From NCBI RefSeq assembly GCF_963676685.1, contig NC_092351.1, positions 13,144,001-13,208,000 of the forward strand: a stretch of 64,000 bases of DNA. The letters run 5' to 3'. Position 1 is the stretch's first letter; each line of letters starts with the position of its first letter. The notes beneath the pieces were generated by a model. The model ran no database searches. It was not told where the DNA came from and worked only from the letters and a program-made list of their open reading frames with translations. Source of the stretch: Mytilus edulis (Eukaryota). Positions 10,582-56,582 of this stretch are shown one piece after another. A program made the position numbers and the translations under genes.

Positions 10582-20056
<9,475 letters not shown>

Positions 20057-24167: not shown

Positions 24168-27100
24168 TTAGTTCTTCGATACTCCCGCCAGAATTGCTCC
24201 AGTGATGCCCATTGTAAATGCTATCACAAGGATCAGTAAATTATATGTACCCTGAAATAAAAATGATAGAATATTTCTTATGCAGTGTTGCGTCATGTCG
24301 CTACATGATATTTAAACGCCTTCATCTAGCTGAGTTACTCTATTAACGGAGATAATTTGCCAGACATCAACGTAGAACTTCACTTTACATCGTATGAAGA
24401 TTTTCTATGACAATATGATGTATTTATCTACAATGTATATGCGCGACTAAATTGTCTGACAGTCAAGAGTCATAAAGGAAAAAATACACAGTCCACGTGA
24501 TAACATCAGTATTGATATTATTGGTCGTCATAGTGTTGATCATGTAGAAATCAAATTTCAACATCTTCCTTTTTAATCATTAGACAGATGTCGTTTATCT
24601 ATGAGTTTTTATAATAAACTAGATGTGTCGGAACGACAAGAATTATCCCAATCGCAAAAGAAAATGTTCAAACCACAAAGCCCGTAATTGTTTTACTGAT
24701 AGGAAAAAAACGTTAACTTGATTAGAATCTCATCATAGTAGACCAGGCATGGGGTAATCGTAATCAGTAATCGTAATCAGCTGTAATCGATTACATTTTG
24801 CAGTGTAATCTTATGTAATCAGTAATCATGCCATTTCTGATTACAAGTAATCATAATGTAATCGATTACATTGCAAAACACAGGTGTAATCCTGATTACT
24901 TTTAGATTACTTTAAAATTACATTCATATGATTACTTGCTGATTACAAATCTTGTATATATATGAAAATAGTTTTTGATAGACAAGAAAATAAGAAAATG
25001 TAAAGCTTGAATGAAGAATCATGAAACTGGTATTCACAATGATGGGACCTTGTTTCATGTGATAAATTGTATCATCTATATAAAAAATGTATATAACCAA
25101 GTGTTCTATTTTGTAAACAGTTTACTAAAGGCAATTGCCTCTCCAATATTTCATTGTGAGATTGAGCTCTTATGATACAAGAATATGCCTTGAAAGCATT
25201 GTTTTCCCTTGATTGAAAATTCTGATATTAACTCCAATTTCATAAAAGTTTACCCAATACTTTAACATAACTACATTGAAATTAACATGCAGAAAACATT
25301 TAGTTCCAATTTGACTTTGATTGTCGACGTAAATATATGAGCCCACTTAATTAAAAATGGAAGTTAAAACCAGATTTCATTTATTGACAACTATCAGTAT
25401 AAACAAGTACATGTACAGTGTAAACATATGGCATACTATTACAAACAATGTGCATAGTAAACAATAGGTGACGTCAGAAGTTTCATCAATACAAAATATC
25501 TTTTATTACAATAAACTGTTGAGAAATGTATATACTTTCCTAAGTTACAAAGCTGTTTTGTGTTTTCACCTGACAAAAACTCTATTAATTATTAATTAGA
25601 TCAAGTATTAAAAATTTTCAAACAAATAATGACAATCAACCATTTCTAACTTTATTGATATTTTATTAAGACAATGAAAAGTTTAATACCCAAGCTCACC
25701 TATTGTTTGTAAAAAAATGGAATTAGTGATTTACACCTGTAAAAACATTAATGGATGTGTCAATTATGTCCCAACAGACAATCAAACTTTACTTAATTAA
25801 TTTTTCTCTATTTGTTCAGCGTTTTTGTTAATTAGGCAGTTGGTTGAAAATTTGTAGAAAAATCAAGTTATATATTTACATAGAGAAAGAACATGTACAC
25901 TTGTCTATAGTTATTGTTAACAAATTACACATGTTACACTGTACTTGTCTATTAATTCTTTATTAAAATAATTTTTGAATAAATTAAGGCTTTTAAAGAA
26001 ATCCCCAAAGTTAGCTTTTTTGTGAGGATAAAAAGTTATAAAAACTTTGATATTGCAATATACAATGTAATCATAAGTAATCTAAAGTAATCATGATTAC
26101 TTTAAAGAAAAGTAATCTAATATAATCGATTACATATGAAAAAGGGTGTAATTGTAATGTAATTGATAACATTTTATCAGCAAAGTAATTGTAATTTAAT
26201 CGATTAAATTTTAAAGTAATCTACCCCATCCCTGTAGTAAACCCATTTACAAAAAATCCCTCAATACGTGAAGGCGTTTAGAAAAACAATCCGTATAATT
26301 GGTTGTTGCAGAATGACGGAATGACAAAATGACTGATAAGTGTAAAAACTATATAGGTCAAACTTCAAAGTGGGAGGGCAATTTAAAATAAAATGCAAAT
26401 AAATGCAAATGAGACAATTATATAGCAAAGATAAGGTAGAAGTTTGCAATTGTGGATGACCATATCGCATCTTAACTGGACATCGCTATTTCGTATTCTG
26501 TTTCAAAAGCACACAGATGTTACAAAAGGATAATCAATGTTTTACCTTAGCCGTATTTGGCACAACTTTTTGGAATTTTGGATCCTCAATGCTCTTCAAC
26601 TTTGTACTTGTATGGCTTTATAAATATTTTGATATGAGCGTCACTGATGAGTCTTATGTAGACGAAACGCGCGTCTGGCGTACTAAATTATAATCCTGGT
26701 ACCTGTGATAACTATTACACGTCAGTATCTTTTTACCTTAATTTCTTTGAAGACAATAACGCCCCATAAAGAAGCTACAATCGATGGTCCAGTTGTAACA
26801 ATAGGAAATGCTACTGGTATTGATAATGCTCTATTTGCTATAAACCAACAACTGTTTCCAATTGCCCACATTACACCAGATATCAAGGCAGGTATCATTA
26901 CTTTTGGGTAGACCTTTGGTTTAAACTTCATAACTATAATGTATGTAACAAAAAATGTGGTACTTGTCAAATATACGCCACAAAAATCAGCAAAAACATA
27001 ATCCAAACCTGAAATATAAAATGTATGATTTATACCAATGACATTTGTTATCAACTTGAAACTAACAAACAGTCGTTGCAATAAGATAGATATACTTATT

Positions 27101-30100: not shown

Positions 30101-32924
30101 ATAACACGATCTTGTTTGTGTAATTCGATTTGATTTTCATGAATCGTTGTAATTCAAATAAGCCGAGAAGTCACACGCTAGATGTAAATGTGTCTAAATT
30201 TCGTGAAATATGTTAAACAGTGCTGATCCTACCTGAGCCCCATGTTGCTTGTGCTTAATTTCAGCCTACTTCAAAGTTTGAAGTGCATTGGGTTTTGTTT
30301 TATTACGTTAGGAATGACATTTCCCTATGATTTAAAACCCCTTCACATTGTAATAACCTCTTGTGTTGTAATTAAGCTGACCTTAACACACAAATTGCAA
30401 CCCCTAGGTAGTTCATGGTAATATGCTCTGGTATTGATTTGTCTACACCGAAAAACCCAAATCTGAAAAAAAAATTGTTTTTTATTGATGATGATGTTGA
30501 TGATATAAGAACCTGAAATAAAATAAGAAAGTAATTTTACTTAAAAGGTATGTTGGCACGAAAAAGTCCATCCCAAGCAGTTCATGAAAATTACGTAGTG
30601 TAATTAAATAGATAGACACTAGTTATAAATGCTTTGAATGCAAATATTTGTAACATACTTTTCTTTAAATAAAGATTGTTACACAAGGAATTCCTGGATG
30701 CCTTACAGATTTTGACAGAATTTTTTGAATTTGTTAAGATCAATGTTTACTATATTAATCAAAGAACATATTGATCACCGATTTTTAAAAATGATCCAAA
30801 CAGAAAAAATAATATAAATGATTTAATAAAACTGATAGAATTTACTTGCTAGTATAAGAATGTTAACGCGATAAATAAAACCGATGCCATTGGATTGATT
30901 TATGCACATCTTCTGTTAATTTATTGTTTCAAAAATGTAGTCAAAAATAAGTCTCTCCCGAAGGCATTGAACCGTATTTGACGCATCTTATCAGAACTTT
31001 CATTTTTTAATGATTTCACTACTTCGTTTTTGGTTTAGGCCTTTCAATCGTTTTGATTCCAGTGTTTACTGATCAGTCTTATGAATATCTGACACGCGTC
31101 TTGCTTGCCAAATTATAAACCTGGAATCTTCGATGAGGTTTTACGTAAATACTTAAAAAGTTTGTATGCTCAAATCTTATCATTCGTGAGTGATGCGTAG
31201 TAAATAGTGCATAATGAAAAAGGACCTGCATGTAACCAGTATATATAGCCAATTTTCCTGAGACAGTTGAAATCATGTGGTAAAATTTAAAAGGAATAAG
31301 TTTTTTTCAGAATTTTGCAAACCTTCCGGTAGACCATCCACTAAGGAGACATACCATAGACCAAATACCAAATCCAAGTCCCAATCCAATGGTCTTCACA
31401 ATGGGAACAACACATATGTTTCCTGTAACAGTAAAAAAAAAACCTAGAAATATTTCATCCGAACAGCATTGTTGATGGATGGCAAAGATGGAACAGGACA
31501 ATCATCCTTCTTAGAAAAAGGACATAATGAGTGGAATATATATACATATGTATATACTATAGATAATTTAGCTGATCTGTATCAATAACATCTTCATGCC
31601 TTATATATCATGTACTGTAGTACGCCGCTAGATTAAAACTGACGTGGAAAGGTAACACATGGCCAGCGAAAGCTCTTTTTTGAGAGCCCAGGTGGTCGTG
31701 TGGTCTAGCGGGACGGCTGCAGTGCAGGCGATTTGGTGTCACGATATCACAGTAGCATGGGTTCGAATCCCGGCAAGGGAAGAACCAAAAATTTGCGAAA
31801 GCAAATTTATAGATCTAACATTGTTGGGTTGATGTTTAGACGAGTTATATATATATGTATATATATATTTGCAATGAATGTGATGTATATAGAATGGATT
31901 AAAGCTAGCACGTTATTGTATAACAATTAGAATAGAGAATTTCGTTTTCAAACTGGCAATACACACATGCATATATACATATAATTGTTAGTTTACCTTT
32001 GAATAACTTATATTGAATCTGTTATAATGTCTAAAAAGATTTAAACTAAAAAAAGAAATAAAGTTAAAAAAAAATGAAAATAGAAAATAATTTACCGAAT
32101 GCAAAGACAACTCCTCCAGTCATTGCTATTGGGAAGAACGGAGGTTGTTGTCGAATTAACTGAACCACAATTCCGGCAAGCATTACACCACTACAAAATA
32201 TCCACTGGAAAAACAAGCCTGTAGGAGTGAAAAGACAATGAAACTTATAATTTCAACATATTTACCCCCCTCCAAAATATACAATTAATAACAGAATATA
32301 TAATAAATAACAGTAATCAAAAAGAAACTGAACAAATCATAACGCTTGTATTTTACACACGAAATAGTTTGGTCAAATCATTTAAAAAGCACGCAAAATA
32401 GAGATTGTTTATTTACTCTTCGAACATAGCACTATTATTTTTGATTACATATGTAAATCTTGATCCGGTATTTAGCAAAACATGATTTATTTGTGTCTTT
32501 GGCAATCGTCTTAAGACTTTGGTGTCAGAAATTATGCCTTAACCATTCATTGTGTACATTATTTTTTTTAATATCATCACCAATTCTTTTAACAAATTAA
32601 ACTACAATAAAATCTAAAAGTTTGTACTGTCATAATATTCTATGTAATTCCTTTCGATTGCTTACCATCACCCGTTTCGTACTTTTTAACAGGAAGTGGA
32701 ACACTGCCAAAAAATAAAACTGCAATACCAGCTGCTATGAAGCCCAAGTATTCGGGTATTGTATCATCTGTAAATGGCACAGCTGTTGTATGAGTATATG
32801 TTGTATTATATGATTCTGTAGAATTCGTCCAAAAGGATGTCATATTCAATGGCACTGATGACGTCGATGGGATGTGTGAGCTCTGCCATGATGTAATATT
32901 TGAAGATGCAGTGGTCAATGCCAT
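24168..32924 (-). CDS. TMEM144: TMEM144-like paralogue B, 9 coding exons, 398 aa
   Basis: Exons 32924-32666, 32218-32096, 31422-31323, 30462-30382, 29766-29691, 29304-29210, 27734-27628, 27008-26737, 24251-24168 (TAA). All GT-AG and in frame, total 1197 nt. Exon sizes 123/100/81/107/272/84 are identical to paralogues A and C. Confidence 0.92.
24744..26234. mobile_element. Non-autonomous hAT-like DNA transposon
   Basis: TIRs CAGGCATGGGGTA / TACCCCATCCCTG; 8-bp TSD TAGTAGAC/TAGTAAAC; dense subterminal GTAATC/GATTAC motifs. Confidence 0.85.
26638..26681 (+). ncRNA. Type I hammerhead ribozyme (family 2), inside a repeat fragment at about 26543-26720
   Basis: GCGTCA-CTGATGA-GTCT tatgt AGAC-GAAA-C GCGC G-TC/TGGCGT. 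The core is intact with a GUC cleavage triplet ending at 26675. Confidence 0.9.
28020..29036. mobile_element. Ginger-like non-autonomous element
   Basis: TGTAGGACTCTAAAGTGCGATGG...CCATCGCACTTTAGAGTCCTACA; 4-bp TSD TATT; arrays of about 19-bp CGCTAAAGTRCGATGG at both ends. Confidence 0.8.
31686..31780 (+). mobile_element. tRNA-derived Pol III head (SINE-like) inside an element flanked by (TA)n tracts
   Basis: A-box-like TGGTCGTGTGG (31693-31703) and B-box GGTTCGAATCC (31760-31770); no canonical cloverleaf. Confidence 0.6.
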
Positions 32925-54642: not shown

Positions 54643-56060
54643 TAGACATTAGACATTAGACATTTATAGACATTATTTTATTAAACCAATCATGGGCCCT
54701 TGTCGGGCAAGATACAAAAACATCATACAATGATTATATAAACATTAATGAAATACACAATATTATAAGTAATACACAAATAATAAATTGATGATATGAG
54801 CAATGTAGGATATAATTAAGGTAAGAGGCATTGAGTGCAATGAGGTCGATTTAATATTAAAAGAATATGATATAAAGTTTATTAATACGGAAACAAAAAG
54901 TAAAAATAGAACCAGGAATATAGTATCTCATTCTGCAGTAGTTCTCCTCATGACCAGTGCACAGCAGTGAGGGACTTTTACATCACAACAATGCAAAGGT
55001 CATCAAGGGGAGATCCTTCAGAACTAGCTACAGATACATGAGATAACTCCAATAGTGATTCTCCTCATGATTAATGCACAGCAGCAAGGGTTGACATTGC
55101 TACTGGGCAATATTCATCAAGGGACGGTGCTCTAGAACTCACTATAGAGAAAATATAAAGTTCAAATTACAAGTAGTAGAGGGAGATAAATCCCATTAAC
55201 ACTTTTCATATTTCTTAATGAACATGCATAATTCTGATAATAAATTCTCATCTTCATTATTCATTAACCATATCAGTTTTTGGTTAAGGTCAAGATTTAT
55301 AAAATTCTTGCAGCAATTATTTATCATTGTTATCATGTCTTTCCTTTGGTCCGATAAACTATCACAGTTGAAAAGAAAATGTGTTTCATCTTCGACCTCA
55401 TTACTACAACATCTCTTACAAATTCTATTGTGTCGGGAGTATTACTATATCTACCTCTCTCTATAAGTAAATGGTGAGCAGATATGCGAAATCTTGTTAG
55501 ACTCCGTCTATCTTCAAATTTTTTAACAATATTAAGATATTTTTCACAACCAAAATTTGATTTAAAGGTAACATATGTCATGTATGTGCATAGTTTTCCT
55601 TCTGAGTGAGTTTTGAGATTTTTTTCCCAATCTTTCAACATGGCATTTCTTAGTTTTCCGTTGTCAATTGGTTTAGCCGTGTCTGAGGATATTGGATAAT
55701 TATTAATCAGTGAAAGAAGTTTTTCAGATGACATATACCACGACGGTTTCTTTGACTCATACAATTTTTTTGATTCTATAAATGCTTTATATAACAATGG
55801 AAAGTTAGTGTCTGATTTTTCTAGTCTGTAATAGTATTTAGTCATTGCTTTAATCATGTTAAAATATATTGGTAGTCTTCCCAACTCAGTTAATACTGCA
55901 AAATTGGTACTTTTTTTTGGAGCTCCAAGAATAAATTTACAGAATTTAGTATGAAGTTTTTCAGCAGGTAATTTAGAGTAAATATGGTCAAATGAAAAAA
56001 TTCCATTTCTATATTTAGATGACATTGGATTAAAAGCACCCCATATCTCAGAGCTGTATA
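54643..56060 (-). mobile_element. 5'-truncated non-LTR retrotransposon (CR1/L2-group-like): ORF2 C-terminus, 3'UTR and tandem-repeat tail
   Basis: YSSEIWG...KLHTKFCKFILGAPKKSTNFAVLTELGRLP...RRSLTRFRISAHHLLIERGRY, then a frameshift into CKRCCSNEVEDETHFLFNC (Cys/His motif). The 3' end has AATAAA followed by (AATGTCT)n at about 54643-54675. Confidence 0.85.
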
Positions 56061-56582
56061 TGTGTCAAATGCACATATTTTTTGTCAACCTATGCTATTT
56101 TTCATACAATTCATTAACATGATTAAAATGCATGAACTACAAGTAAAACAGATATATAATATATAATACTAATATCCCTTGTAAATATTTTTCTAACTGG
56201 GTTTGACAATGTTTGAACGACTTTGTAAGACCAGATGAGGTTATTACTTTATGGCTTCAAATGGCCATTTTCAGATGGGATGGAAATGAAACACATAATC
56301 ATATTAAGTATCAAACATGTCAAACAAAAACATGCACATGTACATGTGACAAGTTATATTTGCAACAATCTGCATGTTTATTTATACAGATGAATTGTTA
56401 TTAAATTACATAATAACTTTCACCAATCATGCAGGTGCAACAACATGAATTCTTTATTCAGTGCCAGTATTGCAAAGGAAAGATCGTGATTCTAGCATTC
56501 TAGAGGAAAGGCTATATATACTATAGGGGGGGGGGGGGGGGGGGGGGGGTTTAGCCGATAGCCATGATTGCTATCATATACA

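Follow-up and report, generated by a model that had tools for sequence, protein, structure and literature searches.

The nearest described counterpart of the repeats reported here is the retrozyme of Mytilus galloprovincialis. According to the accessible part of the published account, it consists of expressed repeats of ~350-390 bp that are low in GC, lack an open reading frame (ORF) and carry two similar hammerhead families, and self-cleavage, abundant circles of ~350 nt and ligation by RtcB in vitro have been reported for it (PMC7229834). Which reverse transcriptase (RT) moves animal retrozymes has been an open question ever since their description, and a review, as far as its available text goes, sees in these repeats no conserved motif that would identify a partner RT (PMC7761336). 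Xenopus retrozymes have been argued to be non-autonomous derivatives of Penelope-like elements (PLEs), arising from PLE pseudo-LTRs; that study deals with vertebrates, and its accessible portion includes no mollusc, records Naiad only in coral and describes no shared RNA structure or priming site (bioRxiv 10.64898/2026.07.22.740005). Naiads are autonomous PLEs of 3.2-4.8 kb whose hallmarks are an N-terminal endonuclease and a DKA motif; they are described as lacking canonical hammerheads, and the available pages of their description do not treat the 5' leader as a structure (PMC8557442).

The window, which is the whole stretch of DNA that was analysed, comprises 64,000 nt of Mytilus edulis (NC_092351.1, positions 13,144,001 to 13,208,000), from a genome of 1.37 Gb with 14 large contigs. 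On its forward strand, a type I hammerhead of family 2 occupies 26638..26681, with stem I at 26638-43/26676-81, CUGAUGA at 26644-50, stem II at 26651-63, GAAA at 26664-67 and a palindrome at 26667-74; cleavage is predicted after C26675, a site assigned by established hammerhead numbering. A second family-2 hammerhead lies at 12386-12429, and two of family 1 lie 350 nt apart at 16433-16476 and 16783-16826. The marks of type I are all present, namely the CUGANGA and GAAA boxes, an NUH site and three helices with helix I open. Helix I has 6 bp, helix II 4 bp and helix III 2 bp plus a tetraloop, as in the canonical metazoan type I hammerhead with its palindromic loop (RF00163; PMC4209133, accessible text). 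The minimal PLE-type hammerhead, in which helix III is absent or core-only and helix II has 7-8 bp (PMC4209133), is ruled out by these helices II and III. Against Rfam Hammerhead_1 (RF00163) the 26638 copy scored 33.0 bits (E 2.4e-4), just below the gathering score of 34, and the 12386 copy 24.9 bits (E 0.11), while no match to the family-1 copies was listed at E<=1. A full hammerhead descriptor gave three matches in the window and none in 100 Markov-resampled windows. The family-2 hammerhead is nearly identical to that of M. galloprovincialis Rtz, of 375 nt, in the portion of that report available (PMC4918200 Additional file 11).

A sequence-only reading of this DNA had proposed that the two families covary in all three stems, and this was borne out. 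The sequences claimed for both families are found at their positions and, between the copies at 26638 and 16433, 9 of 24 stem positions differ, yet each of the 12 pairs is retained, 4 of them with changes on both sides; an outcome as good as this occurred in 33 of 1,000,000 random placements. The family-2 stem II of GTCT/AGAC holds for the copy at 26638, whereas that at 12386 has GACT/AGAC with an A-A mismatch. Compensatory change supports selection on the hammerhead fold; this selection, which had been suggested to bear on catalysis, acted on the source elements and not on the 26638 copy, a lone fragment. An extension of stem I allowing a contact between loops I and II had also been put forward and finds no backing, since constrained folding gives no extension or gain at 26638 and, in the accessible account, the mussel motifs, unlike canonical type I hammerheads, lack the usual loop 1-loop 2 contact nucleotides, most tertiary-contact nucleotides being absent (PMC7229834). 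The copies at 12386 and 16433 each fold with a different extension. The free minimum-energy fold adopts the hammerhead in none of the three copies folded (26638, 12386 and 16433). Further families with another stem II were sought, and among 100 of 439 matches (control, 14) the candidates were mostly decayed copies of families 1 and 2. Neither the retrozyme with its two families nor the palindromic loop III is new, and hammerhead covariation and a palindrome are by themselves ordinary.

These hammerheads belong to the published Mytilus non-LTR retrozymes, which are tandem repeats of ~350 nt. The monomer units, of 355 nt in family 2 and 350 nt in family 1, lie head-to-tail, are homologous over their full length (71% identical, 264/373 columns) and are AT-rich (GC <50%). 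As expected of non-LTR retrozymes, the tandem units fall within 150-450 bp and carry one type I hammerhead each; there is no LTR, PBS or PPT (the last two judged by eye), and no ORF of >=120 aa was found on the element strand across the copies. Exact hammerhead cores number 14,843 and 4,561 genome-wide, with none for a reversed-pattern control, that is about 19,400 here against the ~5,000 reported for M. galloprovincialis (PMC7229834). Two longer families, 3 and 4, were also seen in loci L171-L220, with units of 547 nt (L176:1565-2111) and 544 nt (L173:1583-2126) that are 92% alike and have only the hammerhead in common with family 1; their CNNG-loop cores number 930, of which 207 are CTAG. 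They lack the leader hairpin described below, lie mostly within (TA)n and, in 35 of 49 loci, have their end at +364..+376. They are probably the outcome of a swap that put a hammerhead module on a body for which another PLE provides the enzyme; among 40 PLE/Naiad loci no partner for them was found.

The palindromic stem III regions of the sequence-only reading are present in both families, but the palindrome does not covary, as families 1 and 2 have the same GCGC, which also stands in the Rfam RF00163 consensus, whose stem III palindrome is that of family 2. Since a hairpin stem is self-complementary by definition, only the GCGC loop tests the palindrome. That reading had further linked the palindrome to dimeric cleavage of minimal hammerheads; minimal they are not, but dimer cleavage is plausible. 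The loops of four amplified subfamilies are all self-complementary (GCGC, GCGC and, in two more subfamilies, CCGG and CTAG), which gives modest support to dimer cleavage, and co-folding yields a double hammerhead in three of four representatives. We lean towards dimer-dominant cleavage. That the hammerhead is mainly monomeric, with a loop III palindrome inherited and not selected for pairing, is a serious possibility, to which we give a little under even credence and which concerns the mode of cleavage alone. A cloned single M. galloprovincialis repeat cleaves at ~0.1/min (PMC7229834), most invertebrate motifs cleave as monomers according to the accessible text of the review (PMC7761336), and a short helix III with a palindromic loop is described as the rule (PMC4209133). 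In addition, GCGC is constant between families 1 and 2, CpG decay favours a CG -> TA route, just two independent loop changes are known here, and the CTAG copies are clustered, with no support for a single clade (5 changes, 2 forced). Set against this, CCGG -> CTAG alters two adjacent bases that are able to pair only between molecules, and a by-eye count of the first 100 of the 930 CNNG copies gave 70 CCGG, 16 CTAG, 6 CTGG, 3 CCAG and 5 other, where independent decay predicts about 0.3 CTAG. Furthermore, loop II TATAT accompanies CTAG in 21/29 rows and CCGG in 0/27, the predicted dimer is at -29.5 kcal/mol compared with 2 x -5.7 for the active monomer, and the PLE hammerheads in this genome have GCGC or CATG loops. 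Such hammerheads were observed in the C-terminal-endonuclease PLE families L091/L132, L101, L129, L117/L131 and L122-L124, with a 1-bp stem III; in L134, a PLE hammerhead with a GCGC loop lies in the 3' UTR after a 784-aa ORF and, by eye, has an apparent U3-A8 core, a variant that has been described (PMC4209133).

The insertion ends are polar. In family 1, 30 loci yielded 13 independent arrays, every one of which stops +33..+35 from the cleavage site; their 5' ends are scattered. In family 2, 25 of 30 loci end at +40..+44, these loci having been picked by likeness to the window copy and including two duplicated pairs. When loci were picked by core pattern alone (60 loci, comprising 46 that aligned to family 2, 12 from other families and 2 without an alignment), 36 of the 46 end at +30..+50, where ~6% would be expected for uniform ends, and 10 end elsewhere. 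Arrays reach 9 units and end in ATT. In both families the fixed 3' end lies ~6 nt upstream of a 64-nt hairpin, here called the leader. No target-site duplications were found in 38 arrays (the longest shared word averaged 5.4, compared with 4.9 for mismatched controls), which fits PLEs without singling out Naiad. We infer from these ends that copying starts at a set point 3' of the cleavage site and then passes through that site, so that a cut linear monomer could not serve as template; it would give only 33-41 nt of cDNA, and longer inserts would need a circle or an uncut multimer. In the accessible part of the M. galloprovincialis account, the fixed 3' end, the Naiad leader and the 550-nt CCGG/CTAG families go unmentioned (PMC7229834).

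The leader is the best-conserved part between families 1 and 2 (60/65, compared with 29/39 for the 5' part of the hammerhead), and it is the only similarity between the retrozymes and the 3,370-nt unit of a Naiad element, Naiad A, whose leader matches family 1 at 56/64 and family 2 at 55/64 (pairwise E about 1e-19). A genome search for GIY-YIG, in which 150 of 858 candidates were scored and 50 loci examined, revealed the leader at the beginning of Naiad C (L133), an intact frame of 1053 aa with an N-terminal GIY-YIG at aa 179-269 (E 2.8e-7) and a weak C-terminal RVT_1 match (E 0.021). Naiad A (1000 aa, many near-identical copies) and Naiad B (1007 aa) likewise have intact ORFs and open with the leader. 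All three have the DKA motif, A and B match the GIY-YIG region of C, and the leader of C matches that of the published Naiad_Mcor/Mgal. A regular-expression search of one unit each of Naiad A, B and C found no canonical hammerhead. The register is shared too, as published Naiad_Mgal starts 6 nt before the stem (PMC8557442) and, among 45 distinct Naiad-A ends, 28 lie within -8..+3 of the first base of the leader, 10 stop earlier, 1 is at +4 and 6 read through, which makes 28 of the 39 without read-through. The retrozymes share a cis element, the 5' leader, and a 3'-end register with Naiad, and they also have 5' truncation, head-to-tail tandems and the lack of clear target-site duplication in common with that clade (PMC8557442); in sequence, the retrozyme shares the leader only. 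Shared sequence demonstrates descent, not current use.

The leader has a covarying structure. In an alignment of five related rows, with the structure derived from two of them, 114 of 115 cells are paired and 7 of 23 pairs are changed on both sides (0/500 shuffles), while the core is invariant. A model trained without Naiad C finds Naiad C (5 matches, E 0.004-0.04), and a search of 49 sources (the window plus 48 of 272 loci) gave no match in family-3/4 loci or where C-terminal-endonuclease PLEs begin. Of 54 published Naiad consensi, at least 12 have the core string at their start: 8 from bivalves (one unlabelled), 3 from hemichordate families and 1 from a fish. This count is a floor owing to line breaks, and one extra match inside an ORF was discarded from it. 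A pseudoknot was considered and set aside, as the nested hairpin accounts for all the covariation, and no known RNA family is credible among the Rfam matches, the two found being chance matches at E 1.5 and 2.5. Naiad C (L133:3412-3499, minus strand) and the hemichordate Naiad-1_Skow have one hairpin more in the leader, inserted in both at the same point, which creates a three-way junction beside the invariant core. In both retrozyme families, a UUCG-capped hairpin with compensatory changes follows the leader (16571-16592 in the window); it is absent from Naiads, in which the start codon comes after the leader.

The retrozyme is expressed as RNA. In three raw RNA runs, whose species may differ from that of the genome and which report on the family and not on the 26638 locus, 5,856 of 8.7 M, 6,665 of 8.3 M and 9,975 of 7.3 M reads (0.07-0.14%) fell on one family-2 monomer. 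The reads are several-fold strand-biased, in a direction that under the usual library convention corresponds to hammerhead-sense RNA. Reads across the exact end-to-start joint (339, 423 and 306 per run) are compatible with circles and multimers alike, and depth along the monomer neither dips at the cleavage site nor shows molecule ends piling up, although fragmentation libraries hide ends. Many reads exit the element at +41..+43 into mixed flanks.

Based on these observations, we think it likely that retrozymes with the Naiad leader are copied into the genome by Naiad RT, starting ~6 nt upstream of the leader. We also believe, a little less firmly, that the leader is probably an RNA motif, spread from bivalves to hemichordates and fish, that recruits the telomerase-related RT of Naiad to start 6 nt upstream of it, and that the retrozyme is this handle joined to a circle-making hammerhead. 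First, read-through transcripts would be cut by the hammerheads, as monomers or as palindrome-paired dimers, and ligated into circles. The Naiad protein may then bind the leader, nick AT-rich DNA and prime internally at +33/+41, a step modelled on the Poseidon PLE of Anolis carolinensis. From there, the RT would move back across the ligated cleavage site and keep copying round the circle before dropping off, and its circuits would yield half-turn fragments, such as that at 26542-26716, or arrays of up to 9 units. As described in the accessible text, Poseidon likewise starts reverse transcription internally at a stem-loop near its 5' part, uses ATT targets and has insertion ends that coincide with the start site; it differs in belonging to another PLE clade, with a C-terminal endonuclease and a hammerhead of its own, and in starting inside the stem-loop and the ORF, whereas the mussel ends lie just outside the hairpin (PMC11167929). 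Binding and priming just 5' of the leader are proposed by analogy with that element. If our proposal is true, both the enzyme and the start site of an animal circular-RNA retrotransposon are identified, and by implication Naiads too use tandem or circular RNA as template. The link points to a PLE clade without hammerheads, not to the expected one; the leader and the start register narrow the tests to a single protein, a single RNA element and a single nucleotide position, and the retrozyme could serve as a minimal circular template in studies of PLE reverse transcription. We found no report of the leader or of a link between Naiad and retrozymes in the literature, although Repbase, subscription journals or supplements could hold one.

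Identical fixed ends are also what would be predicted if the leader marked a cut in the RNA, self-inflicted or made by a nuclease that recognises it, leaving a free 3' end ~6 nt upstream from which Naiad RT would prime by ordinary TPRT, the arrays arising from multimeric RNA or template jumps. An invariant core within covarying stems at the extreme 5' end of elements without canonical hammerheads (PMC8557442) speaks for such a cut, and other retroelements keep ribozymes at their 5' end (PMC7761336). We nevertheless consider this explanation unlikely, given that no Rfam family matches the leader, that read depth on the monomer has no pile-up of molecule ends (with the reservation on libraries made above), that circles of ~350 nt are abundant for the mussel element (PMC7229834) and that the one PLE tested in vitro primes internally (PMC11167929).

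Less likely still, in our opinion, is that the retrozyme derived from a Naiad 5' end and is now moved by another enzyme, supplied by a LINE or by a Penelope/Neptune element that bears a hammerhead; the hairpin would then have been kept for another reason, for instance as a promoter or for RNA stability. Hammerhead-bearing PLEs are the partners favoured in the accessible literature (PMC7229834; bioRxiv 10.64898/2026.07.22.740005, for Xenopus), and this genome does contain PLEs with intact ORFs, a C-terminal endonuclease and 3' UTR hammerheads, some with a GCGC loop. However, we rejected the C-terminal-endonuclease PLEs as partner, as in the loci searched they lack the leader and have only chance matches of 15-35 nt. 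Several PLE families end in (TA)n, a run that the flanks of families 1 and 2 do not have, and the ends of young copies (98-99% identical) fall in the Naiad register, which another RT leaves unexplained. Spread at the DNA level, by unequal crossing-over of a satellite or rolling-circle DNA copying with hammerhead and hairpin as passengers, could account for arrays of up to 9 units and recalls the local tandem expansion discussed for Xenopus (bioRxiv 10.64898/2026.07.22.740005), but is largely refuted by end polarity. It is highly improbable, given that the copies are scattered over thousands of sites on every large contig and are mostly shorter than a monomer, with fixed 3' and random 5' ends, and that both RNA structures show compensatory change.

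In the window, the retrozyme piece at 26542..26716 (plus strand) is a 5'-truncated family-2 fragment that begins at monomer position 222 and extends to +41 beyond the cleavage site. It is 98% identical to the monomer of locus L002, BLAST extending the match to 26720 through a 1-nt gap, and is a single half unit without a tandem partner that ends just short of where the leader hairpin would begin. Its 3' end lies 20 nt from the splice donor (26736-26735) of a TMEM144-family exon on the minus strand (26737..27021). The piece is antisense within a TMEM144 intron, would be the product of half a turn of the circle and is probably inert. An older family-2 copy lies at 12111..12461 (plus), 88% identical to the monomer over 12132-12461, with the hammerhead at 12386-12429 and a damaged leader hairpin at 12111-12178. 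Decayed family-2 fragments lie, also on the plus strand, at 14956..15054 (75%) and 30972..31134 (69%). The family-1 array at 16363..16853 (plus) has 1.4 units, ends +33 past the second cleavage site and is the sole copy in the window from which a complete 350-nt monomer (16471-16820) could be released; the Naiad-type leader hairpin in this monomer, at 16505..16571 (plus; outer stem from 16510), belongs to the training set of the leader model. Genome-wide, family-2-type cores with the leader downstream number only 3,965, compared with the 14,843 exact cores (the two patterns differ), and most copies are thus terminal fragments unable to form a circle. The candidate autonomous partner family is represented in the window by a Naiad-A 3'-end fragment at 12694..12925 (minus), matched by eye to the Naiad-A 3' UTR and repeat pieces.

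Three tandem TMEM144-family paralogues occupy 11305-40910 on the minus strand. The five retrozyme pieces of the window all run antisense to these genes; four of the pieces are located between mapped exons, the fifth just beyond a splice donor, a placement that fits the purging of sense hammerheads from pre-mRNA and has a chance of 1/32 if the pieces are assumed to be independent. Elsewhere in the window, a frame of 243 aa at 55333-56064 (minus) has no Pfam match; presumably, to judge by impression, it resembles a LINE C-terminal fragment. Finally, a tandem repeat of 67 nt is present in 6 copies at 17445-17912.
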